From assembly GCA_032718475.1 (NCBI GenBank), contig JAUCBJ010006143.1, positions 1 to 64,000 of the forward strand: DNA of 64,000 nucleotides. Reading direction: 5' to 3'. Below are positions 4,127 through 57,955 of this stretch, one piece after another (position 1 is the stretch's first letter; each line of letters starts with the position of its first letter). Under the pieces are notes generated by a model. That model made no database searches and was not told where the DNA came from. It saw only the letters and a program-made list of their open reading frames with translations. Source of the stretch: Nemertoderma westbladi. Lineage: Eukaryota; Animalia; Xenacoelomorpha. The translations under genes and the position numbers were made by a program.

Positions 4127-5929
4127 GTAGGAATGTGATTATTTTTAACATATTCCAGAATGTGTTATTTTTAACACAGAATGTGTTCTACTGAATTATA
4201 AGTTCAGTAGGACTAAAATTATTTGAAAATTTTGTATTTTGAGGTAAAAATTTGTATTTGATTAGCTAAGTGCTAATTTTTGAATAAAATTCATATTTGA
4301 ACCGTGTGTAAAATATTTTGGAATTAAATACCGGTGTTTAAAAGGGTTTAAATACCATATTGTACCGGTACAAAATTTTCGTAAAGTAAAACCAAACTCT
4401 TGTTTTTCAGCTCATTTCTAGACTGTAATGAGAGCAAGACCGTGTTTAGCAAGTTTGGGAGATTGATAACTCAACAATTTTTGTTGGGGAAAATCGCACT
4501 TCGTCCGCAACGCTGGAAACAGAAAGGTTCACGTCCGGTTTGTATCTGGGAATCTGTTTTTCTGGAGAATTTTGGAGGTGGTAATTTCGAAAAGTTGCAT
4601 TAGTCAGTTAGGCATTACCGTATTAGTTAAAATTATTGTGGGTTCCACTTTCTCAAGTATTTGCTTTCTGTACGATTTCTTCGTTTATTGCTGAATTAGT
4701 CCGTGTTATTTGTGTTTGATTTACAATTTGATAACATATATCGTTATCCGATTTATTTGTTATAAAGTTGGCCGATAGGCTAATTTTATTATATACTTAT
4801 ACCGTGACATTTATTTGCTGTAAAATTGGCTGGTAGGCTAATTTTATCCATTTGCTATAAAATCGGCCGGTAGGCTAATTTTATATGTTTGAATTATAAT
4901 TAGTACCGTTTTATATATAAATACTGTAAGTTTGATACTTGACACTCACATACAACTACCGAACTTAGCGACAAACAGGACTATACGAAAAATACACCTA
5001 CCGACTATGACTCATGTGACTCGGATAAGTCAGTAGCGGAAGAACCACAAGGGAAGACTCGCGAGCCTACCGAACCAACACCGTGTGCGTCACCAGTACA
5101 TCCAACGGGAGTACCGGATGCCTTAGTACGAGGCGACGGCAGGACCGGGGATTTTCTAACTGTTCCGCAGCCTAGATACAGGGAAACAGATATGCTTAGT
5201 TCAGTAGGAAGCCAAGAGAGCATTGTTAGAAGCGTCGGAGGATACATGGCGCATATTACCAGGAGTATTGGAGAAGGCCAACGCATATTAAACGAGTTGA
5301 CCGCTCCGATGTCCCAGTTCGAGTTTTACACCTTACAGGTTAGAGTACAAAGGTACATAAGGTACATAAGGTACATTAGGTACATAAGTCCGTAAGTAAC
5401 CTTATCAGTCTACAAGATCTAGCTAGACAAAGACAGGACGCGGACACTCAGTTTAAGATCCTTGAGAAATTAATGATCGCTAGGGAGAAACTAATTTAGT
5501 TTAAGACGGCCGTTAGACTGATACAACAGGAACAAGCGGACCAGTTGCTAGGTGAGTCAGTTTCCGACGAATTATTGCAGCTCGAGGAAGAACAAGAACT
5601 GTATAGACTGGATGGACAACTGAAATATCTGACGGATCAGTTACATATGTGCGGCGAAGATGTTGGAGATTTGGAAACCGTGCCGGAGGCTACGAGGGAA
5701 GCTTCACCCGTACAGACAGAATGGCACCGGGAATACTGGATCAATCACTGGTAAGTATTCGCAACGAAATTGGCAAGGTGAGTATAATAACGTCAGAAAT
5801 TTCTCGACAGCAGCAACAGTTTTACAGAAAATGACAAGAGATTGAGGAACAAACTCAATTGCTGACAGTACAAGCAGCTGTAGAGGAGGAGAAACTAAGG
5901 GTAGCAAATGTTGCGAGAATCTCTCATCT

Positions 5930-6150
5930 ACAAGAAGCAGCCGAATTAGAAGCAGCTGAGATGGAAAGGTTAGAGTTGGAAATAGCACAACAAACAGCGA
6001 CAGCTGAGTTAGCGCAACGAACGACAGCAGCCGAATTGGAGTGACAAGCAGCAGAAGCTGAATTGGAGCGACAAGCGGCAGCAGCCGAATTGGAGTGGCA
6101 AGCAGCAGCAGCTGAGTTGAAGCGACAAGTGGCAGCAGCTGAGTTGGAAG
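5930..6150 (+). repeat. ~30-33-bp tandem repeats in gag encoding (AAAELERQ)n coiled-coil
   Basis: Repeated GCAGCmGAATTGGAG/GCAGCTGAGTTG units. Confidence 0.8.
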
Positions 6151-6825
6151 AACAAAGGTTAGTTTCAGAAGCAAGGGCTGAAATGAAAAAACGACAAATA
6201 AAGGCCCAATCAGCTATACGACTAGTGGAGTTCGAGGCGCAACAACAACAAACGGAACAACGTGAAAAGGAAGTTAAGCTTCATTTCGAACTCGAAAGGA
6301 AGGCGAGAGAGTTAGCCAACACCAAGGAGGATCTGGATCTTAAAGCCCGCAATCGATCGATCTCGAGATGGACACGATCTAGACAGGATAGAGGTAAGGC
6401 ATCGCCAAATTCAGGAACGAATAAAGGAAGGAAGTGTGGGAGCACCTGAGCGAGGACGGGAATTGGTTAAGGAATTATGCCAACGATTTCCTCAAGTAAC
6501 TCCTATGTTTGCACCAATTACGTCTAAAAAACCTGTTTCGATTGCGGCTAGTAGCAATATATCTCCTATCCACGATGCGACGGAACACAGGTTTGTTATA
6601 CCGGACAAGTTTATACCGCCGAGAGCAACGTCATTGCCTATCACGAAAGTCAAGGTAAGTAATCCGCCAATTACGGACCGTAGTAGTTATTAGCCGGACC
6701 TACATTACTGACGACTAAACAGGTGAGTCAACCTTTGACACCCAAACCTGTCACACACTATGCCAACCCAACTGTGTTTAGACCTACGAGGCCTTTAGAT
6801 TCAAACGCCATTCTGCGACCACACA

Positions 6826-7065
6826 TTCAGTTTACATCGCAATCTACGACTTCGAGGAAGACTTGTGAGCCTACCGAACAGCAGAGACCAGTAGACACGC
6901 GACCACTCAACCAGTTTACATAGCAATCTACGACTTTGAGGAAGACTTGTGAGCCTACCGAACAGCGGGGACCAGTAGACACGCAACCACTCAACCAGTT
7001 TACATCGCAATCTACAACTTTGAGGAAGACTTGCGAGCCTACTGAACAGCGGAGACCAGTAGACG
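6826..7065 (+). repeat. 84-bp tandem repeat x3 in gag linker
   Basis: Unit CAGTTTACATCGCAATCTACGACTTTGAGGAAGACTTGYGAGCCTACYGAACAGC..ACCAGTAGAC. Confidence 0.9.
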
Positions 7066-8519
7066 ATGTTTCAAAACGAAGTGTTAGAATTCGGACAACA
7101 CAACGGACGCAAGCACGTCGGCCACCGTATCCAGGTGATAGTAGCACTTCCAGCGAATCGGATTACCCGGAACGCGAGGTGTTTAGAACAGGAGCGGCCG
7201 ATGAATGCAAATGTGAGCATTCAACAAATTCCTTTATAAATGGTCCTCCACAAAATACACCAACACAGAAAGCGTTACAACCAACAGACACGATCAGTAC
7301 TCAACAATTCGCCGATCTAATGCGACCAGTTGTTAACAAGTTGGCCCAGATTGAGGAATGTTTGGAGGAAGCTCAAACCAATAGTTCGAGAGTAAGTATG
7401 GAATTCGAACACACCAGACACCCGAAGAATCCGCAAAGGACGGTACCCTCAGGAAATACTTCGTATCTTCGGAGAATATTAATAATAATATTAATACTTC
7501 GGAGAATATTAATTCGATTACCACACAAGGACGCGAAACTTTGAATGTAGCTGAAGAGATAGCTAAATTCGCAGCCAGAAAAGGGCTACCAGAGCAGCAA
7601 CCACCAAAGTTCTCCGGTAATTCTCAACATTGGCACACATTTGTGGACTATATTGAATCTCAAATTGCAGCCTGCGCTTTTACATCGAGAGAGAAGTTTA
7701 ATTATCTGCTTCAAAAACTGACGGGAGAACCAAAATGTCTAGCAGAGACCTTTGTTGGTGTACCAGACGCCTTTGAGTTGGCTTATGATCGCTTAACTTT
7801 GATTTACAGTGGCACAGTAAGCATGGCCAAGTCGGTAATGGAAGAACTCTGTAAAGGGGGAGCCATTACAAAACCTGTGGACTTACTGAAGTTAGCCGAC
7901 GAAATCAAGAACGCCATTTCTTCTTTACGATCAATCGGACAACTAGATTACGCAAACACTCCTACAGTCCTATTGAAAATAATTAGAAGATTACACCATC
8001 GACTTCGTAGGGAGTGGAGAAAGATCGAATACCAGCGAGAAGAGACTGGTGGGTTTTTAAAGTTAGAAGACGTTTACCTATTAATATCCAGGGAAGCAGT
8101 GGTCGAAACTCGGTCAAACTATACCGACCAACATATAGTAGCCGAGGGGATAACATTGCCATCTTCTAACCAACAGAAACCACAGACGACATCCACAAGG
8201 ACGGTCACTTACGCCACACTGACAGACACTCAACAATTTTCCGACGGTTATAAAGTGTCCGCACCAATATCGGATCAAACAGAGCAGACAGCAACTAACT
8301 GCCGACTTCAGCGGTTGTCAATACTGCGAAAGAATAGGTAAGCGGCATACTAGTCATAAATTGAGAGGATGTAGACTATTTTGTGAGTTAAACTCTGAAG
8401 AACGACGGCTACAAATACGGCCATTAGATTCTTGATGGAGGTGTACACAACATGGACATGTCCGTAAAGATTGTCCAAATATACACACCTGTCCTTCTTG
8501 TGGACGCAACCATGACGCT

Positions 8520-11500
8520 TTGCTCCACACAGATAGTCATACACCGACGAAACGCTTCACCAGGGAACACCCAGAAGCAGCCGCAAAATGTAATGCTGCA
8601 TACAAAACACGAGAATCAAAATCAACACCAACATTTGTGACACATATTTGGGATTGTTTTCCAGAACAATCCGGGTCTTCGGATAAAGAGTCGGAAGACA
8701 ACCACGCATATACTGGAGACGAACAACCATCGATTGCACTTCTGACGCCTGATCAACTGAAAGGATTCAGTGTAATTCCTGTTAAGATTACAGGCACCAA
8801 GGGAAGCAAACGTATTTACGCCATTCTAGACTCAGCCTCATCTCACAGCTACGTGGATGAGAAGGTAGCTGATGTGGTAACGGACTTTCGACAAGGTAAG
8901 AATGTCAGATATACTGTAAGTAGTATGCATGGACAACATGCGATTCCAGTGACAAGAGTTAAGTTGAACTTAGACACCCTTCTCTCAAAATCGCAACATA
9001 GCGAAAAGGAGAGGTCTTTGCTTTCTTTTAGGGATTTAACCTTTGCGGCCACAAAGGACTTTAGTAACCTACTGGGTCCAGTGCCAGAACAATCCTTGGA
9101 GGACCGTAAGCATTTTAGACACCTTGGTGTACCAGAATGTCCTGTTAATTACAGATCAGTAGCGATGTTGATCGGGACAGACCAATTCAACTTGTATCAA
9201 GTGTGGGAAACCAGACCATTGGTAGTAGTAGCAGGAAACGCTTATGCCTGTAGAACTCCGATAGGTTGGTATACTCGAGCGCCTGTGCGCACACTAGATA
9301 TAAGTGACGAGGAAGATGATGTACAAAGTACATGTAGTTTATTAACTACAACTTTGTCTCATTCTTTTTCAAATGGAAGAGACTATACTACGCGACAGTC
9401 AATGAGACACGACAATGTTACAGGTACGACTTGCGTTACGAATACACTAAGTCATGAAGAGCAAAAACAAATCCACAAGGTTAGTTTGGAAATTGGAAAA
9501 GAGACGCGTCAGGCAGAGTTTCCATCAACGACAGATGATAACACCAGAAGGCTTGCGAGTCTACCTGATCCAATAATGTTACAAACACCCGTTGATGTCG
9601 ACGCACTAAGAAATTATTGAGTGGAACAAGCTGATTTGGACAAAGAATTAACAGAGAAGACTATCAGATGGTTGGAACAAGATACCGCCGAACCTGGTAG
9701 TTACGAACCATGTATGTCGGAACAAGAAAAACAATCTTTAAAGATCATGGAGGATACTATCCGCCAGACGAAAGATGGACATTATGATGGATGATGGAAG
9801 ATGGATGTTATGGTGTAACCAACGACCGAAACTTATAAATAACTATCCACTAGCCTTAAAGCGTTTAAACTCAATACGCCAACGTTTATTAAAGGACGAG
9901 AAAGCCCATTTACATTATAATACTCAAATGGAGACGTATTTGACAAAAGGGTACGCTATCAGAATGACAAACCCGGAGATTGTGACAGATCAGACATACT
10001 ACTTGCCACATCACTATGTGACAACCCAGAAAAGGTACGTGTAGTTAATGACTGCGCGGCTCTTTTTGAGGAAATGTCTCTCAATAGTGAGTTGATGGAT
10101 GGACCAAACATGAATAATTATCTCATAATGAATAATTATGCGCTTTCGCCAACGTCAAGTAGCATTTACTTGCGACGTGGAAGCAATGTTTCACCAGGTG
10201 CGAGCGTTAGAGCGAGACAGAGACAGTTTGAGGTTCCTCTGGTACCCGGATGGAGATTTAAGTCAACCACCGTCAATTTACCAAATGCAAGTTCGCGTAT
10301 TCGGTGCCAGAGATAGCCCAAATTGTACCATGTACGCCCTAAAACAAACCGCTAGGGATCAGAAACACAAATATGACCCAGAGATAATTCAAATTGTAGA
10401 AAGAGACTTTTATGTTGATGATGGATTACAGAGTTGTGACACAGTAGAACGTGCTATAACAGTAGCATATCAATTACGGGACTGTCTAGCAGCTGGAGGT
10501 TTTAACCTAACCAAGTTCGCTTCAAACAGCACCGATTTGGTGAATTTGTTCGAAACGACTGAGCGTGGGGGTGGTGACATAGATCTAGAATTTGAACCAT
10601 TACCGACGACCAAGGTGTTGGGATTATTTTGGGACCCCAACACAGACAACTTTAAAGTAAAACTGACATTGGATGATCAAGGAGGTTCTCTGACCAAGAG
10701 ATCCTGCGTATCAAAGTTGAGTCGATTGTTTGATTCATTAGGTTTTATCAGCCCAATAATACTGCAAGCCAGAATATATATGCGCAGTATATGGAATGAT
10801 GGGACGAACCAATCTCATCTGAACAAGTACACTTATGGAAAACTTGGGAGGCGCAATTGTCTTCACTAGAAGATTATTCCATACCCCGGGTATATTTTCC
10901 ATTACAATCGACATTTCCTGACAATTTAGAATTACATTGTTTCTCTGACGCCAGTGACAACGGCTTTGGAGTGACAGCGTATCTGCGTAGACAAGTAGAT
11001 TCAGACGAGTTTGATGTATCGCTCATTACTTCTAAGGCTAAAACCATGCCTACTAAGTATATGACGACACCACACGCTGAGCTACAAGCAGCAACCTTGT
11101 CAACTACCATTGTAAACCTTATCCAGACTGAACTATAATCAAGTTTACAGATATTTTATTGGACTGACGCGACGTTAGTTTTGTTTTATATAAACAACAA
11201 CACACTTGAATTTAAGACATTTTTAGCTAACCCTCTTGCGGAAATTTTAGACTGTTCAATAAAGGAAGATTGGCGACATTGTCCCGGACCACAAAATCCA
11301 GCTGATATTGCGTCACGAGGAATGATGCCCGAGGAGTTCTGTAAACCGGCGAACAAGAAATTTTGCCAACATGGACCACAATTCTTGCAAAGATCATCAC
11401 AACATTGGCCGCCATTATACGTTAATAAGTCTAACACTATCCCTAAGGATGCTGAAATTAAAAAACCAAAGAAAGGGAAAGCAAAGAAAAGGACGACGGC

Positions 11501-13691
11501 AAAACTTAAGAAGAAACCAAAGGCAAAAAGGAAAAATATAACTTATAAAGTTAAAAATGGAAGACTTGCGAGCCTTTCTTCACCAGACGTATCGCCAGAC
11601 GGTCAACCAGACACGTTACTAGACGGTCAACCAGACACGTTACTAGACGGTCAACCTGACACGTTACCAGATGATCAACCAGACATGTTACCAAATGATC
11701 AACCAGACATTTCGCCAGATATGTGACCAGACATTCATAACACATTGATACATAGTAAAACCGCAGTTTCTTTTTTGGAGCGGCCTTCTATTGACAAACT
11801 ACCAAATTTGACACTCTTGAGTAACCATAAGTACAGTGAAACCTCATGTATTACAGATGTGGGTAGTACCTATACAAATGTAAATACAGGTGTTACTTTG
11901 CGCTCAAGAGACATACCAACCTTACAACCTACGGTGGGACCTGGGATAAATATCGGCAGAAAAATAAATTTACCAAAACCCAGTGATCCTATAGAATTTA
12001 AACTACCATTAAGGATCGACTTACAAAGTATCGACAATCAAGGTAAGAAGACGAAGAAGGACAAAATACTTATAGACCCGGACGGATCAACAGTCAATAA
12101 GGGAATACCTACCGGCGGACCCGTGGGCCCATCTAATAAAACGAGACCTTCTAGACTAATCACTGACTTACCTGATGACGTCATAAATACTTATGTCGAC
12201 CGTATTGTAAACCTAACAGATTCTTGGACAAAAGCGAATTAGCGTGGATTGTACGTTTTGTACAATACGTTAAGGGCAAACGCGACTTTACACGTTGACT
12301 TACATTGACCGAGATTGACAGATGTGAAATTAAATTAATTTGCCATTACCAATTACGATATTTTGCACGCGAATTCACATCTATAAGTCAAGGTCAACCA
12401 ATCAAGTCATTACCAATATTGAGTTGGAGTCCAATAATTTATAATGGCTTAATTTGTCATAAATCTCGGCTTCAAAACATTGACTTTAATACTGAGTTTA
12501 GATACCCAATAATAATACCACAACATCACGAATTACAATGTGCAATGATACTGGACGCACATTTACAACTAAAACACGCTGGAAGACACCACTATCTTTC
12601 ACATCTACGTACAAGATTTGTATTAATTAGACCCAGTAAAGCATAAGTTCAGTGACGCGTATATGTATTATTTGTAAAAAGGTACATTCTAGATTAAGTA
12701 CCCAAGAAATGAGTGAACTTCCACAAGCACGACTACAAGCATTCAGACCATTTTTTACAGAGACTGGAATTGACTGCTTTGGTCCCATAAATACAAAACG
12801 TGGACGTATACTAGTAAAACATTGGGGACTGATATATATATGTCCAGTAGGGCAGTTCATATTGAATGTGTGATGGATCTTTCCACTAACGCTTTTATAC
12901 TAGCATTATGGCAATTTATCGCTAGATGCGGACTAGTAGAATGCTTGTACTCAGACCAAGTTACAAACTTTGTTGGTGCTCAAAATGAAATTGCAAGGGC
13001 CTTTAAGAAATTAGATCATGACCAGATCTCCAATGAACTACGTCCTTACAAGATTGTTTGGAGATTTAACCCTCCAGATATTCCATGGAGAGGCGGAGTC
13101 TGGGAGAGACTGGTAAGATCCATTAAAACAGCCATGGCAAAAGTCATTCCAGTACATCACATATTGACAGACGTCCAATTGACCACATTGTTTGTTGAAA
13201 TCGAGGCAATACTAAATACTAGACCCATAGTATTAGTACCCGATGACAAACAATCCCAGTTTGCTTTAACACCAGCACACCTGCTAATGCAAGCACCGAC
13301 TACATTGATGCCTATTTCGGTTTCAATGGAAAGCGATAGCTATGGTAGAAAGGCGTGGAAAATCACGCAACTACTAGCTAAGAAATTCTGGGAAATATGG
13401 CAAAACCATTATTTGCCCTCTATTTCTGCCAGAACCACTTGGTACAATAACACCCGAGCTTTTAAACCGGGCGATCACGTACTGTTAGCAGAAGTGAATT
13501 TAAAAAGACGCCTCTGGTTAACTGGTGTTATTTTAGATACACACCCATCTATGGACGGAGTGACATGAACTGTGACGGTACGGACAATTGACGGTCATAC
13601 TGTAGACAGACCGACTCAACGTCCTTTACTTCTTGAAGAGACTCGGAATAAGTCTGGAGATTATAAGTCTCCAACTAATCTTAGTAAATAA
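8520..13691 (+). pseudogene. pol: BEL/Pao pol: aspartic protease, RT, RNase H (Peptidase_A17-like), integrase; fragmented
   Basis: AILDSASSHSY (protease); YYLPHH, DVEAMFHQV, LRFLW, FGARDSP, FYVDD (RT); KVLGLFW, LHCFSDAS, NPADIASRG (RH); TGIDCFGP, YSDQVTNFVGA, PWRGGVWERLVRSIK, EIEAILNTRP, LTPAHLL (IN). Confidence 0.95.
11582..11733 (+). repeat. 24-bp tandem repeat (~5-6 copies) between RNase H and integrase
   Basis: CCAGACACGTTACTAGACGGTCAA units, encoding PDTLLDGQ. Confidence 0.9.
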
Positions 13692-14113: not shown

Positions 14114-14318
14114 GTGAGTATTTTAAACTCACAGCCAGTTTAGCCCAAATCGTTTTTATTTCGGCAACAAATTTTAAATAAGAAACAGTGTGTCATTAAA
14201 GAAACCTTAGATCTTAGGCTATGGGTATGAGGTTAGAGCGTTGTCAAGCCAAAAGGGCAGACGAAAAACTCCCAAATCTCCTCACAACTAACATAAAACT
14301 CTGTTGTATTCCCTCTAG
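14114..14318 (+). promoter_or_regulatory. Putative 205-nt intron upstream of the accessory ORF
   Basis: Donor AAG|GTGAGT at 14114, branch ACTAAC at 14287-14292, acceptor CCCTCTAG| at 14318, ATG at 14351. Confidence 0.55.
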
Positions 14319-14350: not shown

Positions 14351-17300
14351 ATGGCAAAGGGGATATCTGGAGAGCCGAGATGGGGATATGATATCCAAGA
14401 GGAAGCAGCAGCTCCATTCGAACGATTTGGAGCAACAGACTACACTATATTTGGAATAAAAGATTTATCGGAGAGTACAGCAAAACTTGCTAAAACTAAA
14501 TATGACTCAACGGTATTAAAGAGGAGGCAGAACGCTTTAAACGAGAGAATTGAAAGTTTGCGTCAAACCTTCAACGAACTTTATCCGTACGATGCTTTAT
14601 GCGATACGGGAGATATTAGTGAAGACCCAGATACAGAAATAAGTAGTTTGTATCATACCATGCAATACCTGAAGGCGCATGAACCTATGCCTGCGGTACG
14701 TCATGAATTCAATGGAATGCATCTTTACAGACCAACTCGAGGAGACAATAGAGAAACGAAGGAAGCCTTTTCAGTTTATAAACTTTATTATCAATGTGGT
14801 GCTTGTATGCGCGAACAACAAAAGGCGATTCTGATGCGTTTGAATAAGGAAAATCCCGAGCCGATATTGGCGAGGTGTTCGAACCATCAACAACTACGTT
14901 ACCAGGAAGGAGGGTATCCTTTATCTAATCCGTATCACTCATTCGCTATGTGTGGACCAAAGGCGGAAGAAATTGTCGTTTGTCCACCTAAGATTGTTGA
15001 ACCCGATGAATTTGAACTTACGCTGGAAGAGGTGACTCAGTCAACCCGTGAAAGGAAAGAAGCTCTTAGCCTATACAGAGCATATAAGGCTTTTGAGAAA
15101 GGTGAGATGGAAGAATGAGGCGGAAGACTTGCGAGCCTACCTTACCATTGGACATCACACGATCAGACTTCAGCTAAGGAGATGACGCTGGAAATTTTCG
15201 AAAGTATAAACTTTGCCCAAAATGTCATTCAGAGACTACAGATTGCATCCCCGGAAAGGACAAGAGAAATGCAACTGCATAGTGCTCCGACTACGAAACC
15301 ATTGAGTAAGACACTCAATTTCCCTATTAGTATACCAGTTCGGAAAGATTAGACTTATGAAATACTTATTGTGGATCATCCGAGAATTATGTCAAACTTA
15401 GAGTTCCTTTCTGCTGTTGTTCTGAGCGATATGGTTAAGATATATGATTTACATAGACACATTACGCAAAAGGTCGTGCATAACGTTCCGCTACATATTC
15501 AAGACTTTAGAGAACTGGATAGAGCTGGCACCGATATAGCTCCGAGTAACTTGAAAGGATATCTAACCAGAACAATTCGCTTATGGATCGGGACAGGAAC
15601 CTTTCAATCGGATACAGACATCGCCACGAATTGGCAAGGTAAAGTTATTCGTTTCGAGGACGAGAAAGACATGGAGAAGATTTGGCAACCTTCGGAAGAA
15701 TTAATGGACGAATGGAACAGGACGCTTAGATCATTTCAAGAAAATGGTTCTATGTTTTATGATAATGAGGGCGGCAGCCATCAACAAAGTCTAACTTCTA
15801 AGACTATACAAATTAGAGCGGCAGACTGAGTCTTGCACGTTTTTAGTAGACAAAGGAGCGACAAGCGAATGCCGATACCTCAGGGAACTACTAAGCGGCA
15901 CTATCTCATTACCAATATCATAAGGAAGATGGACCAGGCCTGCAACATCGATGCTAGAATGTTACCGAAGATGGTAAGAAACATTATTTTAGTCAAAACT
16001 GTTGTAAAGATTGGATCAGGAGTGCGAGAGGATTTAATTAGCGACTTTGCCGGCATGTCGGATAGTGACGACAGATTACCGACACCTTACATCGATACTC
16101 GACCTCTTATATTATGGTCCATAGAACAAGGATTTTTCCGGGAGTATGATACGCAAAAGACCGGAATGGGATACATTTCCTACCTGATGTTTAATTGGGA
16201 TTACAAGGAAAGTAAAAGAACTAAGTATATTGAAACATATGGAGAAGGTGATACTCCAGATATGAATGAGTTTGAATCACAGCTAAAATGGAGAGGATGC
16301 GTGTATTGGGCTATTATGTCACTTCCAAGAGCAGTACTACAATATTATTTAGCGATAGAGTCATCAGTAAATGTTTGCTTAATCACCGACATTGTGTCTT
16401 GGGGACTCTTAAAAGACATCCACTTTGTCTCGGAGAAGGACATACGTTCTACGAGGAAGGGAGAATTCATACTGACGTGTTTAGACGATTTCTCGAACCC
16501 TTCTACAATTCCGATGCTCAGTGCAATGCCTTTACTCGAGCAGGATTTAGTATATTTTGATACATGTATCTTCGCTGTGAGGGATCGCTTATCGAAAGAC
16601 CATCTATGTTTACAATTTTACCTTATGAAGGAGAACGTATTGTAGAGGTTACTGACGAATCACGGCAGACGCGCGCACCTATCGGTCACTTCGGTGATGA
16701 TTCTGAAGCAACAACGATTGGTGATCCTCTGGAGGAACTTCTTGAGATTGAAAGAAACCTTCCGAAGAAATCCCAGACGGAGATTCTTCAACTTGAAGCA
16801 ACAGATGCTGTAGTTTGTATACAACCTTCTGAAACATACCAACCTGTAGATCCAGACAATTATGACTATAGTGTGGGAGGAAGCGCTCGACCAATTGGTG
16901 ACCTTATATATGAGCGAGTATGGTACCCTGCTAATACGATGTGTGGTAAATGTGGCGTCGCTGGACATCATTCGACAAAATGCAGCAGAAAACATATTAC
17001 TACGACTCAACTGATTTGTGGATGGTGTGGAGACCAGGGATCCCATACGTTTTATACTTGCTGGAGATTTATGGCACAATGTTCATACTGCAATATAAAG
17101 GGACATTGAGCATCTGAATGTCAGTTGAGAGACATACCATATGAACACAAGTCGGTGACACTCGTAAGAAAACTGTTTGATAATTGGGAAGATTTAGCTG
17201 ACAAACATGTATCGGCACAAAGATAACAATTCCCGATGAGAGTACACCTCGGATTTTGGGCGGTAAATCCTCAAACTATGATGTCGGAAGGATATATATG

Positions 17301-18080
17301 CTACAATCCGCTATGCCACAATATGATGAATTGATAGAGGTAGTTGACATTTTGCCTCACGATAGTGGATTCAGGGTCGTGCGAGAATATTTATTGCAGA
17401 TTCATCCAGACAATAAGAACATTTGGAATTTCCAGAAAGTCGTTAATCGTATCACGTATGGTGAATTCGACCGTTTTCGAACTGAAAAGCGAAACAAGGG
17501 AGCTTGGTTAACATTCGCATGAGCGTACCGAGCCGCCTTCTACCATAAACGTGTACGGTCGAGCGTATTTGAGGAAGAGGAGATCCTAGAGGCGACCGAC
17601 ATACCAGCCACTCCGGTTGCGCTGTCTGCACGTCACCCTCGGGAGGACGAACAGAACAGGATCATAAGGGTTCAGAAAGTGAGCCAACAATTAAAGAAAA
17701 CTCTTAACATTGAAGAACGAAAGGGATTTGAGCCGGCTATTCGAGTTACTCGAGATACGGTGTCGCTTCCCAGAGAGCCGCGAGGAGGATTGGGACATAT
17801 ACCAGCCAATCAAAAGGGGGCGCAAGCTTCTCTTGGGTCTGCGCCGTCCGCTTCCAGCGCGTTCCCAGACGTTTTGCCATCGGTAGAACCAACCAATCGG
17901 TCACGAGGAGTCGGACGAGGATTTGGGTTTACTAAAAGGCGAGCTTGTGAGGAAATGGTCGCACCATCTCCCAACGTCCAAGGTAAACTAGTGACTCGCC
18001 CCATAAGTCCTGTAGTACGAGCAAAGTCGCCTATACGCAGTTTTCAAGGACGCGGCCGAGCCCAATCTACAAAGAGATGA
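14351..18080 (+). pseudogene. Accessory gene of BEL element: novel N-terminal Cys domain + DEDDy-like 3'-5' exonuclease + 3 CCHC zinc knuckles + low-complexity tail (~1,240 codons, decayed)
   Basis: ORFs 14351, 15371 and 15833 share a frame and are separated by point stops; FYDNEG..TIQIR..HVF (ExoI), LPKMVRNIILVKTVVKIGSGVRED (ExoII), YIDT, YLAIE (ExoIII-like); knuckles CGKCGVAGHHSTKC, CGWCGDQGSHTFYTC, CSYCNIKGH*ASEC. Confidence 0.75.
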
Positions 18081-18714: not shown

Positions 18715-19780
18715 TATAGAATTATATCCTCACAAAAGCCGTAAAATTTCCAAATTTTATTTTGTTGGAATTAATTTGTATTATTTGATAGGTTCATATG
18801 TTATAAGATTACATTAAGTTCTCATTTGCATTTGGTATAGCTATTTGTACAACATTATTCAAGTGGTTCAGTAGCTCAGTTGGTTATGCGTTAGAAATTC
18901 GTTTGATAGGTATCGAGTTCAAATCCTAGCAGGTGTAAATTGTTTTTTGTGCCAATTTTCAACTTATTTGAATTGACCGCTACGATTGAATTGTATCTGC
19001 TCAAGGTAGATTAACCAATGAAATTGCAGTTATTTGACAGTAACCAATGTTGTGCAAGTTATGCGTTTGCTGGACCAATGGTTATATTTAAAAATGTAAT
19101 GGAACCTATAGAATTATCTAGATTTGTCTAGATTATTGGCAGCACTAATTCACTATATAAAGGTGCGTTTGTGCGATTAGTTACACATTACATCAATGTA
19201 TTTCACATTATTTGTATTTTATTTCGTGATTTGTTCATTATTTGTAATAAAGTTCGAATTATTGTTACATCTGTTTTAACATGATTCACCACGGTGAACC
19301 CAACTGAGGGACAGGTGGCAGGCTAAGCAGCGGGCTGCAGCAGTGAATGGGAACATCGGCGGAATGTAGAAAGCCACCCACAATATCGATTAATAGTTTT
19401 TCGCCCATCGCCTGAAAGGTTAGACAGCGTTTGATGCCTTGCTACCTAAGTGTAAGACCTGAGATCAAAGGTAGACGTAGTGACACGCTGTGCGCCAAAA
19501 TTTAAAATTAGGAACTGTACTGTTTTGATTCTGACAGAACCCGCGGTACCCCTTCACATTCCTACGGGAGGAGAGTAGAGAGAGAGAGAGAGAATAGATA
19601 CAAGTACACAGATAGGACACAGGCACACCATTACGGGGCATGTACATTGGTAGGGTACACCAAAACTGTACGCCTAACTTATTTGCCGTGTATAGGTGCG
19701 CTTGTGGCTTGTTTTGTAGTACAACGGTGTCCATTGCTTGTATTGGAGTCTGTAGGCCAAGAGAAGGTTACCGTGTCGTG
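18715..19780 (+). repeat. BEL 3' LTR, left part (similarity to the 5' LTR visible from 19097; start at 18715 inferred from preceding GGAGCGG)
   Basis: TTTTCATGGAGCGG|TATAGAA resembles TTTTCTGGGAGCGG|TGTAAAA in front of the second element's LTR. Confidence 0.75.
18865..18933 (+). pseudogene. tRNA-like sequence / SINE head with Pol III A and B boxes; anticodon arm degenerate
   Basis: GTAGCTCAGTTGGTT (A box), GAGTTCAAATCC (B box). Confidence 0.6.
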
Positions 19781-20248
19781 AGTAGTAGATAAAGCATAGT
19801 CCTCACAATAGTCCTCCCTAAGCCTGGGCTATGCACATTCCATTGAGAGGGGTATTAAAAATGTCAAATTCCGGTGCTAAATTGCGATGCGCGCGCCATA
19901 TGTCACCATCGGCAGCTGCCATCAACCAATCGTAGCGTAGCCTCACCCCGCGATGTCCAATATTATATTATATCGATTGCCAACTCAACGATTTACCCTC
20001 CGCTAGCTAGTGCTACTCCTCGACGGCACCACCACCACCACCGCTGTATACTGTATATGAAGACGAGAACAACGATGTGGCCATCTACACGCATCGTGCA
20101 TATACCCTCCCTCGATATTATATATTATATTATATCGATTGCCAACTCCACGATTTACCCTCCGCTAGCTAGCGCTGCTACTCCTCGACGGCTGTCACCA
20201 AACCAATAAACCAACCAACCAACCTACCAGTATGATACATGAAATTCC
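19781..20248 (+). repeat. Polinton left TIR
   Basis: Reverse complement of 43668-44116 apart from a central differing block. Confidence 0.92.
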
Positions 20249-20953
20249 GCCACGCGTCAACTACACGTTCTCGTATTTCCATAGTAGTTACTCAAGCTAA
20301 CCATTCCCTCAGCATCTGTGACATATTGAAAGGCTACTACTACTAACATTATACTGTGCGTTTTTATTATAATTATTGATTATTATTACACACAACCCAA
20401 TGATTCATATTCTTTCGCATATTTCCTATCCACGCAACCAATCATCCACATTACCCATCTCTTTTCTTATTTGTTCATTATGCCACATCTCACTCTTCTA
20501 CGTTGACTATGCTACATCCACATCCCCACGTATTCAGAAATTTATATATAACTGTAGGTTTTTAATAAAATTCATCACTTGTAATCTTCATGGTAATATA
20601 TTGATACCATATCTAATTTTTTTTGTTCTCACTCTGAAATTGTGTTATTTCCTTAATAATTTCTTCATTATCTTACTCGTTGTATATTCGTTGGTCAGAA
20701 ACACTCGAATAAATGATACTGATTCCCACATTGGGTTTCTAAATCATGAAATATATAAGTGGTCAGAATCTCACACAAGAGAGAAGATGATACTTAATGA
20801 TGTAGATAAGTTAAGTATCATCTTCTCTCTTGTGTAAGTTTCTGACCACTTATATATACACAATTTTAGAGTGAGAACTATGGTGTCAATTTATTACAGC
20901 GATACGGTTTAAAATTTATCACTGTAATATTTTTCGTATTTATTATTATTATT

Positions 20954-22018
20954 ATGGCCTTAACGCAAAAAACCGGAGCAACAAATAGCTGGAAATTTAC
21001 TTACAATAAATATTCTTGTACCGTCGTTCACAGCAAGTATTTTATTGTGGAATCTCAGGAGGACAACGAATCAATTTGTTTTTCCAATCAAGATACCCGC
21101 TATTTGTTAGACATTCTAGAAACAACCAACAACAACCAACATTAATCCAGACCAGCAATTATACCAGGTAGGATATATCCCACTCTTCGTTTTGTGCGGG
21201 GAAATTTGAATATTTCCATCAACCCCACATCGGGTGATGTTTACGTTCAGAAACAAGGCAAATGTAAAGTTCTCAACAAAGCTTTTACTGAAGTTCTAAT
21301 TCAATACAGAGGGAAATTATTGCAATTTCTCTCTCCACCTCTAGAGATTATTAGCAATCAATTCTACATTGAATTTTCAAATCCAGAGTTTATTGGATTT
21401 GTAACAGCTTTTAAAGGAACCAACTATGTTGGCTTATGGAAAATCAGCCTCAGATACGCTGATATTGTTGGTTTTAACTATTATACAGGTTTCAATTTGT
21501 CAAAACAGGAACTAACCGTTTTGTTGCGAGAGTGGGACTACCAAGTCGATGAAACAGACAAGCATCTTTTTGATAAAAATATCATTCAGTTATCAGACCG
21601 TCTCAAAATGATTAAAACCAATAATAAAAAAATTATTATCACCAACACCGATAATTCTACTGAAGTAGGGGCCGGCGGAAATTCTATTGAGTTGCATTAC
21701 TTGAAGGATAAATTCCATATTAGTTTTCTCAAAGAAGCGATGAAGGGCGTCTCTCTTACTGATGCCAATGTAGATGGTTTTGTCCTTTTGGATAAACCTA
21801 AAGCATTCGTAGAGATCCGATCACCTAATCCAGATGTTGAAGAGACTTGCTCTCAACCTCAACAGGTCTTTCCTGAAATATTACCTTGGAAGCCAAGATC
21901 ATCGAGTAAATTTACCAACACTTCACCTGCAAAGAAACAGAAAGTTGTCGGTAACCCTGTTCTAGTAGATCCAGTTACTAATTCTCCATGGAAACCTGAT
22001 TATTATCCTAACATGTAA
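20954..22018 (+). pseudogene. Polinton protein with tandem PC4-like (ssDNA-binding) repeats; one premature stop
   Basis: VTAFKGTNYVGLWK..TGFNLSKQELTVL resembles PC4 V..FKG..idiR..KGISL..eq...L; similar units KGVSLTDA and SICFSNQDTRYL. Confidence 0.55.
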
Positions 22019-22221
22019 ACCTGATCATAAGTTAAACTCTTTGTGGTTTCCAATAGCCATATGCGATTGGTGACTGGTGATTGGTGATTGATTTAAAATT
22101 ATTTCACTTGCTAGCATATAAATGTTTAGATATAGTCAATAACATTTCATTTCATTTTATTTTAATCTTTGGAGATATTTTATTATTATTATTATTATTA
22201 TTTATCTAAACAAACTTCAAC

Positions 22222-25200
22222 ATGGATAAAATAACAATATGTTGTTCATTCTGTCATATGAATGTAACTAGACATAATTACTTACGCCACCTACGGTCAC
22301 ATTTTGAAGGTTATTCTTGTTTTAAGTGTCATGTCATTACTTCATGCAGTAAAATTTGTAAACGACATGAATCAACTACTGGTTGTAAAGAAATGGAGTT
22401 CCGCACCTATCAATTGACTTGTTCTACCTGTAATAAAGAGTATACATATGACAATTATCTACGACACAATTGTCACTTGAAATGTTACTGCACAAGAAAG
22501 CGTAAATCTGGGTGGCTCTTGGTACATGCGCAACAATTTTTACACGGGAACAAGAAGCTCACGATAATCGTCTTGAAATTTATGTCCACGACCTCCCAAC
22601 TTCTAGAGATTATCCCGATGTAGAAACAGCATTAGCGCAAATTTGAGGTAATATTCTTCAGTTAATATTAGACAGATTGAAAGAAATGAATGTTCTTAGA
22701 CTGTGGTTAGGTCTAAATGTATTAATGTACAGATCACATTTTTCAGAAGGTGAGCAATTGGAAACCTTTTATTTTAATTCTTCCGGTGGTGCTATTAATA
22801 CTGTAGATTCATCACAAAGTTTTGACACATGGTTTGAGTATGTGGTGGGAAATATATTACAAAAAATAGCCATGTTTAACACACGTGGCTCCGGGTGGCG
22901 TATTAATTCTTTATTAAGGGTTGAAATTAAATTAGCTGAATCTAAGTGTAGGTCGTTACTATATAAGGGGCATGGATATATGGAATTACCTAAGGCTTTA
23001 TCAGCTAAAAATGTACAATAAATATACAAACAGCTGATAATGATTGTTTCAAATGGGCTATTATATCCGCAAAATTTGGTAGCAAAGTGAAAAATAATAA
23101 AAACCATACTTCATCGTACAAAAATTATATGAGTCATTTCATTTTTTACAATGGGAACAAAGATTATCCAACAGAGTGGCAGTTAGCGATTAAACTTTTT
23201 GAAAAACAAAATTCAAAATATATAATTAATTTACTATGTTGGAATAACGACAACAAACGCACCCCTGTATCTATATTAAGACAACCTCCGTTTAGTAAAA
23301 TTACACCTGATAAACAGTTATTAAATATATTACTTGTAGTAAAAAATAACAATGTACCTAAACTGAATCATTATGTTTGCATAACTAACTTGAATCGATT
23401 GCTGAATACGAGAGCTCTTCATACCCAAGGTAGGCAATATTGTGAAAGGTGTTTGACACATTTTTTTCGAGCAGAAGTTCTTCTTCGACACCATCTCGTA
23501 TGCTACCAAGGAAGAAGTCAGCGCGAGAAACTACCTAATAAAAAAAGAACACACATTAGTTTTACAAATTTAGATAGAACCTTATCCCCATTGTTTGTCA
23601 CTTACTTTGATATAGAATGTATCTTACAACCATCAGTATTAATAATCAATTTATACAGGAGCATATACCGTGTGCGGTGAGTTATTTAATTGTTCCCAAT
23701 AGTGAATTAATTGATGCTCCAAAATGTCATTTGAAAACATTTGTAAAGACAAATAATAATAATTGTATTCAAGATTTCTTAGATTCATTATATACTGATT
23801 TAACTGAATTATGTTGTTGGTCAGACATATACACTCATAAAACTATGTCATTTACTAATATTGATTTTGTAAATTTTGAACAAGCAAAATTTTGTTTCTA
23901 TTGTAATGTTACTTTAAATAATAATGTAGGGAAAAACAGACACCATTCACATATTACTGGTAAATTATTGCAGCAGCCTGTAATAGTTGTAACCGAAGTT
24001 TATCATTGAAACGAAACCTGTATGTACTTTGCGGGCACAATTCCAGTAATTACGATATACATTGTATATTACAAACCGGATTTAGAGATAAGAAATACAC
24101 AGATTGGGATATAAAGGTTATACCGAGAAATACAGAACGATATATTTCACTGAGTGCATTTATCCCAATTAAAAACACTTCTAAAAAAATTGAGTTACGT
24201 TTCTTAGACACATATCAATTTTTAAGCTTTTCTTTAAGTAATTTAGTTGAGTGTTCAACAAAGGATGTAGCGAGTCATGATATGAGCTCAATTTTACCTA
24301 TCACTCTACAAGAAATGAAATATTTTTATACAAACTTGAATAACTCAACAATTAAACGGAAAGGAGTATTTCCATACAAGTACTTGACAGATATTAATAA
24401 ATTTAATGATACTAGTTTGCCATCTATAAATAATTTTTTTAGTAACTTAAGTCAAAAAAACATGCACAATTGAAGATTATAGGTTTGCGGGATTATCATG
24501 GGTAGAATTCGACTGTATGAATCTCAAAGATTATCTTTTAGCCTATTTAAAACTTGATGTTTGTTTGCTTGCTGATATATTTGAGAATTTTAGGAATGTT
24601 TGTAAACAAAATTACGATTTAGAAGTGGTTTTTTACTGTAGTATCGCGTCATTTACCTATGATTGCGCGCTAAAATATAATAAATGTAAAATAGAATTAA
24701 TAAAGGATTATCAGACATATAGAGATTTTGAAAAATCAATTAGGGGTGGTGTTTCATTTTGTCGAAAGCATTATATAGAATCAAATATACCAGGAACAAG
24801 TACATATGATTCTACTAAGGAAGAATGCCATATTTTTAATATTGATTTCAACTCTTTATATTCTGGGAATTTAAGTAAAAAACTACCCACCTCGCAATTC
24901 AAAGAAGTAAGTATTAAACATTTAGAGAATGCAATTCCAGAAAAACTAATAGAGTACTTGGTAGATTTAGACATTGATGGATCTACTGGATAGTTTTTAA
25001 TATGTGATTTAAATTATCCTAAAGCTATTCACGATCAAACATTACAATTACCGTTAGCACCAGAGCATTTAAGTATAAATGAATCAATGCTTTCACCTTA
25101 TATGAGGGAACAATTTAATAATTTATCGATACAAATATAATATAAATATAAAAATTAAATAATAAGTAAATATAAGATCCGTAAATATAAGCTGTCTACA

Positions 25201-26179
25201 CCAAAACTCTTGCTGACTCAATTTGATAAAAGAATTTTATTCATTTACATTTGAAACTGTTAAAATTTTATATAAAACATGGATTAATTGTTACTAAACT
25301 ACATAAATTATATTCTTTTCAACAAGAATTTGTATTTAAAAATTACATAGATTTTAATATTAATCAAAGGCATCTAGCACAAAGTTACATTAAACGGCTG
25401 TTGCGAAGCTGCTTAATAACTCGTTATTTGGCAAGTCAATAGAGAGGATACGAGACCGATGTAACTTTCATATCGCAAATAGTAATGATAAATGCGACCA
25501 ATTGGTAAATCGTATTAATCATGAACAATTTATAATATACAATAATACATTATCAGGACATTTATTAGTGAAAGACTCTGTAACTCTCGATAAGCCTATA
25601 TTTATTGGTAGCGCGGTGTTGGACTTGGCTAAATTGGATATGTATGAGCTGTTCTACAATAAATTGCTAAAAGCATTAATTAAAAATAATATTTTAGATA
25701 CTTCCAATTACCCTAAGGATCACCCTCTCTACAGCGATAAAAATAAATCCAGACTCTATTACTGTAAAGACGAACTAGCTTCACGTGAAATTAAACAAGC
25801 AGTATTTTTAAGACCAAAATTATATTCAATTTTGGAATGGAATAACAAAAATATTCGTAGAGCAAAAGGTATTACAAGAGCTGTTGTGGAAACGAATATT
25901 ACACATGAAGAATATTTAAAAGCATATAACTCAAATGAAGAAATAAAAAAAAACATACACGGATTTCAATCTAAATTACATCGTATTTATACCTTAAAGC
26001 AAAATAAATTTGCACTCAGTAGCTTTGATGATAAACTTTATTGGATTAATAAAAATCAATCACTTCCTTGGGGGCACTATAAAACAAACCTCAATAAACC
26101 TATAAAAATATCAAATATACCAATTTATGAAGAACCAAAAGACAATGGTATTGATGATGAATTATCAAATAGTAAATAA
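22222..26179 (+). pseudogene. Protein-primed DNA polymerase B with N-terminal zinc fingers, terminal-protein/vOTU region and endonuclease VII-like insert; fragmented
   Basis: C2H2 fingers; GSGW; DCFKWAI/NHYVCI; YFDIEC; HHSHITG; HNSSNYD; FLDT; RKGVFPY; YLKLDV; SIRGG; DFNSLY; LRPKLY; RAKGI; SSFDDK. Confidence 0.95.
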
Positions 26180-27212
26180 AAATATAAGTTGTAAGCAGAT
26201 CATTTATGGACTTAATTTAAAAGAATTAAAAAATCAATTAACTGGTAAAATTGTACTCAAACCTAATCAGTTTATATATAAGGTATTTGGTGCAACCATA
26301 TTAATGTTTACACGAAGTGGGGACTTCGCGCAGCACGAAGTTGGCAGAGCCTTAGCGAATTGACACTGTTAGGGGGTAGGTCAATTTATGCAAATAGTCA
26401 CGTTGGCCCTCTAGCGGCAGACTGGAGAACTGCAGATGGATTTGCCTCCTTTGAAAGTCACAGCTAATGGTCTAATACATGTCTGCCAAGTTTCAGCTTA
26501 AACGGATTAAAAGCAAAGAAATGGGAGGGCATTTAATGTTTAGACATGTGGCCCTCTAGCGGGAGACCATTGCACTGATGGTGTCTGAAAGTCTCTCAAA
26601 AATCTCAACTTTTGCTCATATTGATACCTACAAATTTTCAACTTGGCAGCTTTAAATCCGACAAAGTTATTAGCATGTCAAAATCGTAACGACGACGACA
26701 ACGACGACGACAACGACGACGACGACGACAACGACGACGACAACTATTTGCATAAATTGACCCACCCCCTAACAGTGTCAATTCGCTAAGGCTCCGCCAA
26801 CTTCGTGGCTCGCCCCACAAATGGTCGAATAACAATTCTCAGTAGAAAATATAATTTTAATAAAGTGAAAAAGCATATATTCGAAAAAACAAACATTAAT
26901 TTGATTTTTAAATCAATCAATTTGTGTACTTATATTTTTAGTATAGATACCGTAATTTATAGGTTACTTATAAACAATATCGGGTTTTATGTTATATTTG
27001 ATAATGTTAAACTAGAAATTTCATACGACCCTGAAATATTCAATAACTGTAAAATCAGAATAAAAAATAATGTTGTTGTTTGCTGTTTCTACACTGGTAA
27101 ATGTACATTAATGTGTTACCCGTTTAAATTTCATATATATTATCCTATATTCAACAAACTGGTTAATAATTTATTATTGTTTGGTGCGAGGGTTTTTTGT
27201 TGTAAAATATAA
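26157..27212 (+). pseudogene. TATA-binding-protein-like gene interrupted by a Helentron-like insertion
   Basis: Removing 26313-26816 joins ..ATILMFT|NGRITILS; second repeat ISYDPEIFNNCKIR..VVCCFYTGKCTLM resembles TBP SYEPELFPGLIYR..VLLIFVSGKVVLTG. Confidence 0.7.
26313..26816 (-). mobile_element. Non-autonomous Helentron/DINE-like element, copy 1
   Basis: ~65-bp subterminal inverted repeats, internal (GTC)n microsatellite, near-identical copy at 47583-48112; both inserted at ACAA/TTGT. Confidence 0.65.
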
Positions 27213-29419
27213 TTAGTGCGAGTGAAATTTATTGTTGTTGTTGCTGTTTGGTGGTGGAGATTTTTACTGTAAAATATATATATTAAATTGGCAGGAAAAA
27301 ATTTTTTATGAATATTTTATTTAAAATCAACAACTAGTTTGAGAGGAAATTAACTAACTAACTTTAGTAGAGTAATTTCTTGTAACACACAAGTAGGCAT
27401 AGTATACTCAGGGGCCATAGCTAGCTAGCTAGCTAACTAAGCATTGTTGCTCACGAGTGAGCTACAATAGCGCATCTGTTACTTATGAGTGTGCGTGTGT
27501 GCAGCAGCCAACGCTAAGCTCAGCGAGAAAAGATTAGGGCTATGTGCTGGTATTCATAGTCAAAGACGAGGTCATCCTATCTGTTACTAGTCTGTATACC
27601 GGTACATATTATTAAAACATCGGCTATGCATCTACCTACATTCAGAATAGAACAATGAACAGTGCATATATCGCTAATCCGCATGGGAAAGGTTTATGTT
27701 CTACATTTTGTTAACTATGTGAATTTTGTAATGTAAACATCTGCGACCCACTACAAAAATATATATAAACTCAATTTTCAAACAATGAACTATAATTTTG
27801 TTAACCAAAATAAGAAAAAAATAAAAATACCGGTATACTGTATCCACCCTGTCTGTTACCCTTAGACTATATATATATATAAACCTAAACTAACCTGAGA
27901 CAGCAAGAAGATGACTTTTGCTTATTAACAACCGTTCGTTGAAAAGCAACATAAAGTTTGATTTCGAGAGCGAGGATACTTTTGTATCATCATCAAACGT
28001 ATCTGATTTGGAAATCAGATACAATAATAAAAAATTTGAAATCGGATTTACCAATATCATCAATCACAAACATGGAGTAACAAAGTTAGAGACTACGAAA
28101 AACTTTACTTTGAATATAAGAATAAATCCTGGATCAGAAGAAGAAGAAGAAGTTACCGGTAATCAAAACAAATTAATACCAGCAACTCTACAAGAGAATT
28201 GGAAAACAGAGACCGCCGCAACTATACCAGAACCGGCAGAGACTATTTAGAAAGAAATTAAACTTGCAATGCCTACCTGTAATAATAATAGGCCTAATCA
28301 TCAACATTTTTCATAGTTGGATACTGGTATCTAACTAGTACACCTGTACACCTGTACACTCATACTCATTTCTGCATTTATAAAGTAGGCCTAAATGTTA
28401 CCAGTCTGTGTATGTCTATATTAATATGTAATTTAATTTAAAAAGCGGACACATAAATAAATAAATAAACTAACTAACTATGTTTTATATAGTCCCGTCA
28501 ACATAGATTGAATGTTAGTAACAGAGAATGTGGTGGATTTTATATAGGCTTAGTTAGGTATACTGCGAGCCACACCTATTGTATCCGAGTGGAGCCTTTA
28601 TATGACTGGTTGAATGAAGGGGTTCCTGACTGTGTGTTCTAAAGGTTAACGGTATAGCATACAACATACTGTCATAAAGTGAATGTTGAAAGTTAGTAAC
28701 AGAGGGTGCGAGGGGATTTTATAGGCCCAATAGCGCTACCGGTACCTAACCATGCCTATTGTGTGTGTGAGCTAGTCATTAGGCCTATATGCCTAACCGA
28801 ATGAAAGTGTACCTTACCTATCCGCGAGTACTAAAGGTTAACCGTAAACCATATTGGGTCAACATTCGAAAAAGGGCCCCGCATAAAGTTAACTATAGCT
28901 GTATAGGCTTACCTATGCGACAGTAGTAGCCCGCAGTAATGTAGATTAGACCAATTAAAGTTGTAAACAGAAAATTGGAAGCATTCAAGTGTAATTGTGT
29001 AATCCTTAAATCAAAGAAACCGGTATGCCCTTGCTCTATCCTCAAGTACCGGTATACAGTTACAAAAGTGCTATAGGGCCGCCGGTACCAGTAGGCCTAT
29101 TGTTAGGAGGGCCTCTCTAATGCGGCATTCACGAACCCTCCATGTTGAGTTAATTTAATTTTATTATTTAGTAAGTAACGCTAAAGCGTTGTGGTTGCTG
29201 TCAGTCTAGAAGGGTGCCATTCTGCCATTCTATATGTCTGTATGTGTAAAGTCAGCTAGCTACTGGTAGTTAAACTCTGATACAACAACGGGCTACCGGT
29301 AGGTGTGGTGTGTTTGTGAGTGTAAACAGCGATATAAAAAAAGATTTTAATGTTTTTATTATTTTTATTGACATTAAAACAAATATATTATCCCATCACA
29401 TTACATGCTTAGAGTAAAC

Positions 29420-30023
29420 CTACTGTAAGAGTACATCTTCCACCGCAGTTATTTCTTTCTGTTTATCATCATCATCAGTCACAGTTAAACGCTTTCTCAC
29501 GAAAAAGCGTTTCATCACATACCCACCGACGCGTTTTGCTGAGCAGTACCGCAGACAGTTATCCCTTGTGTTTAAGTGGAACGCACATTTATTTTCTACT
29601 GTAGTAAATTGATCGTGGAAACGACAAGGGGTTAAATAATCGTGATATCGCTCATATATTCCCAATTTCTCCATCGAATTTGGTGCGAGAACATCAAGTT
29701 GGGTGTTTAATATTGCCTGCTTCATCAACCCAAATACATATATTTTTTTTATATTTTAAATGTCTCTTCATGTATTTTTTAAAGTCCTCTTGCGAAATGT
29801 CACCGTAGTCCCAGGGTAAATGAGAAGTCATGTCCCGTAAATTGTTTACGTGGGCTACATCTAATGCTGATAATTTAATATTAGGGGGGCCTTTAATTAA
29901 AAACGTCTTTACATTAGTTTTGGTGTAATTAGAATCGAATATAGCAAATTCTTTAAATACTACTTGATACTCTTTATTGTCTATCGTATAGTATTGAAAA
30001 TCAACAAAAATAATATTATCCAT
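29420..30023 (-). pseudogene. Polinton DEDD-exonuclease-like accessory gene, frameshifted
   Basis: IIFVDFQ..VVFKEFAI, LPWDYGDI and C-terminal C..H..C motif; a gene type common in animal Polintons. Confidence 0.55.
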
Positions 30024-30054
30024 TTTATCTGATAAACAAAAGTTAAATGATTAA

Positions 30055-32311: not shown

Positions 32312-32345
<34 letters not shown>

Positions 32346-34840: not shown

Positions 34841-34841
34841 T

Positions 34842-41398: not shown

Positions 41399-41438
41399 TG
41401 TTGCAACATTATTGAAAATTGTTACAAAATATTAATTA

Positions 41439-44116: not shown

Positions 44117-44122
44117 GTCGTG

Positions 44123-57918: not shown

Positions 57919-57955
57919 TTAATAAACAATTTCAATTAATAATATTTCCTAACAG

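Follow-up and report, generated by a model that had tools for sequence, protein, structure and literature searches.

The 64,000-nucleotide stretch analyzed here, positions 1 to 64,000 of contig JAUCBJ010006143.1 from Nemertoderma westbladi (assembly GCA_032718475.1; hereafter the window), harbors what is, judged from its domains and long terminal repeats (LTRs), a decayed copy of a giant BEL/Pao retrotransposon. Between the integrase and the 3' LTR of this copy lies a third gene, which we read as a decayed accessory gene of the element. Its product would be a predicted soluble RNA-binding protein without a membrane anchor, laid out as a Cys-containing N-terminal domain, then a diverged 3'-5' exonuclease of the DEDDy type, three zinc knuckles, and a basic low-complexity tail. 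Sequence comparisons indicate that the exonuclease domain is very probably of DEDDy ancestry. The features of the gene, and of a second version of it in the window, are:

14351..18080, + strand: third gene, ~1,240 codons, with 6-7 stops and 2 frame changes
14114..14318, + strand: putative intron or acceptor site for splicing (by eye, from consensus matches to donor, branch point, and pyrimidine tract-AG)
14537..14917, + strand: N-terminal Cys-containing domain, common to the second version (pairwise E 2e-8), no family assigned
15755..16360, + strand: DEDDy-like exonuclease domain (ExoI DxE, ExoII K-x-G-S-x4-D, ExoIII YxxxE at best)
16942..17121, + strand: three Cys/His zinc knuckles, then a conserved E-x2-AD block
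51890..55981, + strand: second version of the third gene, ~25% identical, within a different element that is highly repeated and has no pol close by

From the ATG at 14351 to the stop at 18080, the gene spans 1,243 codons, which bears out the length and the decay described for it in a first-pass annotation of this DNA, but not the single frame, as the path changes frame twice. The path with the fewest breaks contains five stops and two frame changes, that is, seven breaks or 0.56 per 100 codons, and shuffled versions of the gene needed 46-53 breaks (10/10 shuffles). For comparison, two control stretches had ~4.2 breaks per 100 codons and gag-pol had 0.86. As the density in the third gene is lower than in gag-pol, the gene was probably intact when the element inserted. 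The path based on homology contains 6-7 stops, with the first frame change near 16,400 and the second between ~17,200 and ~17,320. Past ~16,400, the alternative frame matches the second gene version (z=14.8). We also compared public contigs of four runs from three studies, three of the six listed runs containing part of the stretch, and the contigs of all four runs show a length difference at this same place.

The product lacks a hydrophobic N-terminus, and its highest 19-residue hydropathy is 1.36. By this measure, no signal peptide, C-terminal anchor, or other transmembrane segment was found, in agreement with the earlier view that the gene is not env-like. The gene starts ~660 bases downstream of the end of the integrase frame. 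As splice donor and acceptor consensus sequences lie between integrase and third gene, it was likely translated from a spliced message of its own.

The predicted exonuclease domain, the zinc knuckles, and their relatives

The motifs quoted in the first-pass annotation were all found where it had placed them, namely FYDNEG (15755), TIQIR (15803), LPKMVRN (15962), KIGSGVRED (16007), PYIDT (16085), GMGYISYLMFNWDYK (16163), and YLAIE (16346) in the exonuclease domain, and knuckles at 16942, 17017, and 17080. Three knuckles are in place, but the third one holds a stop codon.

The third gene and the second version are 25-29% identical, with E-values of 2e-8 for the N-terminal domain, 3e-13 for the exonuclease, and 4e-15 for the knuckles, and with z values of 22-24 for these three parts (100 shuffles); the final ~290 residues of the third gene are unmatched in the second version (z 0.6). 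As the second version matches the exonuclease as well as the knuckle part, both domains belong to one gene. The N-terminal domain had no Pfam match above cut-off and no usable match in the ESM Atlas.

A full HMMER search over 1.84 billion proteins yielded two weak matches, P0002 and P0003. P0002 was rejected as an unrelated immunoglobulin-repeat protein. P0003 is an intact metagenomic protein of 541 residues from a short public contig and combines an exonuclease with three knuckles. It matches the third gene in the ExoII region (E 8e-11, z 16.5) and in the knuckles (E 6e-5, z 6.6), carries the canonical DTE, the ExoII Asp, and YLRND, and has all nine invariant Cys/His columns of the knuckles together with the E-x2-AD block after them. 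No phage match was found for P0003. Word-based protein searches returned no relative or the query only, and a metagenome scan found none (0/75). Four matches of a second metagenome scan (4/594) were discarded, as they are generic knuckle proteins that lack both an exonuclease and BEL pol.

The ExoI D-x-E and the ExoII Asp are kept in all three sequences at 25-32% identity, and the ExoII Asp aligns to the RNase D ExoII block in each of them. A three-row family profile matched a profile of 50 bacterial PF01612 domains with P=81%, E 1.2e-5, and a score of 41.6; none of 30 column shuffles scored as high (maximum 22.2), and the alignment brings ExoII and two following blocks into register. The third gene and the second version alone scored 32.6 against 25 RNase D-type domains, again with 0/30 shuffles as high. 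For the homolog P0003, the 10 best family-assigned ESM Atlas matches all belong to the DNA_pol_A_exo1 family or clan, and its top cluster, which is a lead, combines exonuclease and zf-CCHC (score 0.88).

Several results weigh against this assignment. Set against 24 short WRN-like domains, the family profile did not reach significance (20/30 shuffles as high), and the third gene alone was significant against none of the three profiles. None of the three proteins had a match above cut-off in Pfam or NCBIfam, no match was found among PDB sequences, and with a home-made hidden Markov model of 50 bacterial domains none of the three, P0003 included, rose above shuffles. AlphaFold models built without alignments had predicted local distance difference test (pLDDT) values of 33 and 39 and showed no usable fold. 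Hence, the DnaQ-like fold anticipated earlier finds support in the profile-profile comparison, but not in structure prediction. For the exonuclease region of the window itself, the ESM Atlas returned nothing. Finally, the ExoIII motif YxxxD is present in P0003 alone (1/3 sequences); the third gene has YxxxE at best or no motif, and the second version lacks the acid in either of two registers. As YxxxD is not seen in the third gene, we class its domain as DEDDy-derived rather than as the canonical DEDDy exonuclease that had been annotated. Support for the DEDDy fold is moderate and indirect, coming from the profile-profile match and from the Atlas matches of the homolog.

The BEL/Pao element, its family, and neighboring elements

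Once an inserted Polinton is subtracted, the BEL/Pao element is ~17.9 kb long. It comprises the following features besides the third gene:

2570..4126, + strand: 5' LTR, CA end present, opening TG absent (alignment to 3' LTR)
4127..4138, + strand: primer-binding-site position, a 12-mer exactly complementary to a sequence within the LTR
4943..13691, + strand: decayed gag-pol (Pfam domains; 25 breaks in 2,915 codons)
7385-8341, + strand: Gag DUF1759 (Pfam E 5e-11)
8436-9620, + strand: gag-pol knuckles and protease (protease assigned by eye, DSAS motif)
10132-10869, + strand: reverse transcriptase (RT; RVT_1)
10800-11138, + strand: RNase H region, Peptidase_A17 (Pfam E 3e-24)
12774-13691, + strand: integrase with DUF5641 (Pfam E 9e-15)
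19095..19780, + strand: 3' LTR, left part, TG start (alignment to 5' LTR)
44123..44830, + strand: 3' LTR, right part, CA end (alignment to 5' LTR)
19781..44116, no strand assigned: Polinton/Maverick inside the 3' LTR, 24.3 kb, terminal inverted repeats, decayed

The domain order between the LTRs is gag, protease, RT, RNase H, and integrase (Pfam). DUF1759, Peptidase_A17, and DUF5641, the three Pao-specific domains, all lie above the curated Pfam cut-off, which confirms the BEL/Pao identity given in the first-pass annotation; RVT_1 matched pol at E 0.008. The LTRs are 96.7% identical (1322/1367 aligned columns), and the 3' LTR has both ends of TG...CA, the 5' LTR the CA only. The BEL element shows no visible target duplication of its own, and its 5' flank belongs to another element. 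A comparison with two viral stretches yielded no relative of the RT, and no Rfam or tRNA match was obtained. Within pol, the interval between RNase H and integrase has an unusual insertion at 11139-12242, with short repeats as well as a basic stretch. Upstream of the Gag core, at 6815-7066, a unit of 84 bp is repeated three times in tandem.

In correction of the first-pass annotation, the 3' LTR is split by the 24.3-kb Polinton. The Polinton is flanked by a 6-bp target duplication (19775-19780 and 44117-44122), has AGTAGT termini, and retains remnants of DNA_pol_B_2 (pPolB; E 3e-5), Peptidase_C5 (E 4e-4), and the integrase rve (E 2e-9).

The 12-mer at 4127-4138 is complementary to 19554-19565 exactly and to 3032-3043 with one mismatch, ~460 bases into the LTR. 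It has three matches in the window, a number reached in 1 of 100 shuffles (position not counted in). A tRNA-type primer site was not evident after the 5' LTR, as judged without comparison to a tRNA library. The position and complementarity of the 12-mer directly after the 5' LTR form a Tf1-like self-priming signature. Furthermore, 10 sites (5054, 6858, 6942, 7026, 9548, 11561, 13980, 15124, 18104, and 18409) carry an imperfect palindrome of 15 bp, with none expected from 100 shuffles. These sites are confined to the BEL element, where they lie in differing reading frames and in non-coding parts. The palindrome did not form a stable hairpin in three of three tests; it could be a protein-binding or RNA-dimerization site.

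In the public contigs, all 30 bins from the integrase to the 3' LTR are covered in 4/4 runs, and many family contigs are 82-90% identical to the window. From this even cover, we infer linkage of pol and third gene in other copies. Among the contigs listed, none spans both, and no pol or terminal repeat adjoins the second version within the window; both points speak against a gene that belongs to BEL/Pao elements. Linkage to BEL pol and LTRs, which the first-pass annotation had proposed as a check, is supported by the family-wide cover of pol, gene, and 3' region; the second version corresponds in part to the outcome named there as refuting. Indels are suppressed within the third gene across the family contigs: among the listed pieces, which are the longest ones and are redundant across runs, the 20 in the gene have 33 gaps and 1,353 substitutions, and the six in the spacer have 71 gaps and 173 substitutions. 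In run X5, 6 gaps and 324 substitutions fall in the four listed gene pieces, and 13 gaps and 25 substitutions in the single spacer piece.

Some contigs lack the exonuclease part, with joints at 14481-16523 in the BEL element (1/4 runs) and at 53025-55557 in the second element (2/3 runs), which fits a gene that is not needed in cis. In run X1, the second element is represented by 36,552 contigs on 9.2 kb versus 2,441 on 6.6 kb for the BEL family. Both gene versions reside in high-copy families, and one genome holds two deeply diverged versions. At 19109-19300, the start of the 3' LTR, contig depth drops approximately tenfold in 4/4 runs, which suggests that most family members carry a differing U3 sequence.

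The very high-copy element housing the second version extends over 48330-57200, with no pol or terminal repeat visible. At 48893-50461 lies a non-coding element of 1.57 kb, which has terminal inverted repeats, ends of the TTAA type, and an internal repeat of ~162 bp; contigs that omit it exist in 3/3 runs. The remaining features of the window are a second Polinton fragment (44831-48329, 88% to 20551-23284), a ~520-bp element with 65-bp inverted arms in two copies (26310-26820 and 47579-48116), a frame with a fibrinogen C-domain (57953-58633, Pfam E 1e-37), and an open 691-codon RT frame at the window start (8-2083, RVT_1). The latter element, whose 3' end precedes the 5' LTR, appears Penelope-like in our own reading, based on the RVT_1 match and on the remaining motifs by eye.

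Candidate functions of the third gene

Gag-pol alone suffices for replication of most BEL/Pao elements (PMC8742986). As most of them lack a third gene and as deletion derivatives persist, we read the gene as accessory and its product as trans-acting. The knuckles would tether the nuclease to RNA, some residual catalysis would be retained, and RNA binding together with 3'-end trimming may shield the element RNA from host small-RNA silencing or surveillance. This whole chain is a tentative proposal, to which we attach slightly more doubt than confidence; it ranks ahead of the alternatives given below. A point against it is that in rotifers, ORF3 (open reading frame 3), the third gene of retroelements there, showed no clear link to copy number in the data presented in PMC5408684. 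Animal retrotransposons are thought to be poorly defended against silencing by PIWI-interacting RNAs (piRNAs), and a knuckle-bearing RNA exonuclease would be a concrete candidate for such a defense.

It is possible, though doubtful, that the protein is instead a DEDDy derivative without catalytic activity whose role is confined to binding RNA, as a chaperone, a transport adaptor, or a decoy for piRNA factors, similar to EXD1, Maelstrom, or Egalitarian. The altered or absent ExoIII motif of the third gene and the missing acid of the second version would be expected of such a protein, the three knuckles would offer an independent RNA-binding surface, and EXD1 and Maelstrom are inactive DEDD derivatives in piRNA biogenesis (PMC5408684). 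However, ExoI DxE and the ExoII Asp have been kept in 3/3 sequences despite deep divergence, P0003 has all four acids, and both versions in the window are decayed, so that the ExoIII residue may be specific to these copies.

An exonuclease acting inside the particle, where it trims the RNA primer made by the element itself, or other intermediates of replication, at the 3' end, appears unlikely. 3'-end processing of element RNA has been suggested for the rotifer genes (PMC5408684). The complementarity of the 12-mer to the LTR, with no tRNA-type site evident, would suit this role, and the knuckles, which look like nucleocapsid fingers, could allow the protein to be packaged as well. On the other hand, there is no pol near the second version, and Tf1, which uses self-priming, makes its primer with RNase H alone.

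That the gene is a passenger not serving the BEL copy, whether captured from the host or a mobile element in its own right, we consider quite improbable. The homologous gene in a different and far more repeated element without visible pol could be read in this way, as could the lack of a bridging contig among those listed. Yet the third gene is not flanked by terminal repeats or a target duplication, it is intronless, co-oriented, and covered evenly with the integrase in 4/4 runs, indels are suppressed in it, and the element-specific palindrome occurs alike in gag, pol, spacer, third gene, and 3' region.

Very improbable is a proofreader of reverse transcription that permits a larger genome, as ExoN does in nidoviruses (PMC7968707). 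DNA proofreaders do exist among DEDDy enzymes, and the element, with ~17.9 kb, exceeds the 4.2-10 kb given in the profile of the ICTV, the international virus-taxonomy committee (PMC8742986), but RNase D-type profiles and exonuclease-knuckle and EXD1-like clusters match better, and the gene is separate from pol and has no recognizable RT-binding part. A diverged envelope glycoprotein is hardly tenable and already largely refuted: the site after the integrase is that of BEL/Pao env genes (PMC13524379), but the hydropathy profile described above, the knuckles and exonuclease motifs as cytoplasmic or nuclear features, and the lack of a fusion-protein match in Pfam all contradict it.

In its boldest form, the accessory-gene reading would see an old mobile exonuclease-triple-knuckle family as a transposon-encoded suppressor of piRNA silencing, carried by a giant self-priming BEL/Pao element and by an abundant, possibly pol-less element whose success stems from the gene; this we regard as rather unlikely. 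With P0003, an intact natural homolog, the activity could be put to the test.

Comparison with known systems

The elements known to encode a DEDDy domain include the Dada DNA transposons, where the 3'-5' exonuclease domain is part of the DDE transposase and has its four acids intact (PMC3706591). A layout of exonuclease plus knuckles is also seen in eukaryotic DNA_pol_A_exo1 + zf-CCHC and EXD1-like proteins of the ESM Atlas, which form the clusters nearest to P0003; these leads (scores 0.81-0.88) differ by their length of ~380 residues and are not known as transposon cargo.

Among BEL/Pao elements with env, such as roo, Cer13, and Atlas, the order Gag-PR-RT-RH-IN, the Pao domains, and a gene downstream of the integrase recur (PMC8742986, PMC9094657, PMC13524379), whereas the third gene here is not a glycoprotein. 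The element is also larger than is typical (~17.9 kb with LTRs of 1.4-1.56 kb, versus 4.2-10 kb and 0.2-1.2 kb) and has a self-complementary 12-mer in place of the typical tRNA-Arg/Gly primer site (PMC8742986), both traits being described in the ICTV profile as typical of BEL/Pao rather than as a basis of classification; its size exceeds the 15-kb upper bound used in PMC3118150. We found no exonuclease gene in BEL/Pao and no triple-knuckle fusion in the literature, with older Cer papers, Repbase, GyDB, and supplements, any of which may hold a precedent, outside the scope; the nematode Cer precedent mentioned in the first-pass annotation was likewise not found, older Cer papers again lying outside the scope. 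A count of the word "exonuclease" in four main texts (PMC3118150, PMC13524379, PMC9094657, and PMC2774666) gave 0 for each.

Exonuclease third genes in LTR retrotransposons as such, which the first-pass annotation had thought potentially novel, were published in 2017: the LTR retrotransposons Juno and Vesta of bdelloid rotifers and the Terminons carry DEDDy third genes (PMC5408684), a case repeated in PMC6431247 and PMC5718144. Like the gene described here, rotifer ORF3 is a non-env third gene after the integrase, RNase D-like and DEDDy, and without a transmembrane segment (PMC5408684, PMC6431247); it likewise has an altered set of acids, no demonstrated activity, and a distribution across unrelated retroelements (PMC5408684). 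In contrast, its carriers are not BEL/Pao elements, its motif is DEED whereas the departure here is at ExoIII, and a triple knuckle or a length of ~1,240 codons is not described in the available text of PMC5408684, the two being compared by description only. Within the literature covered, what is new here is the DEDDy-type third gene in BEL/Pao, such genes in rotifer LTR elements being already known. The present case adds BEL/Pao to the retroelements that, like those of rotifers, carry enzymatic cargo other than an envelope, here in the form of a larger multidomain protein.

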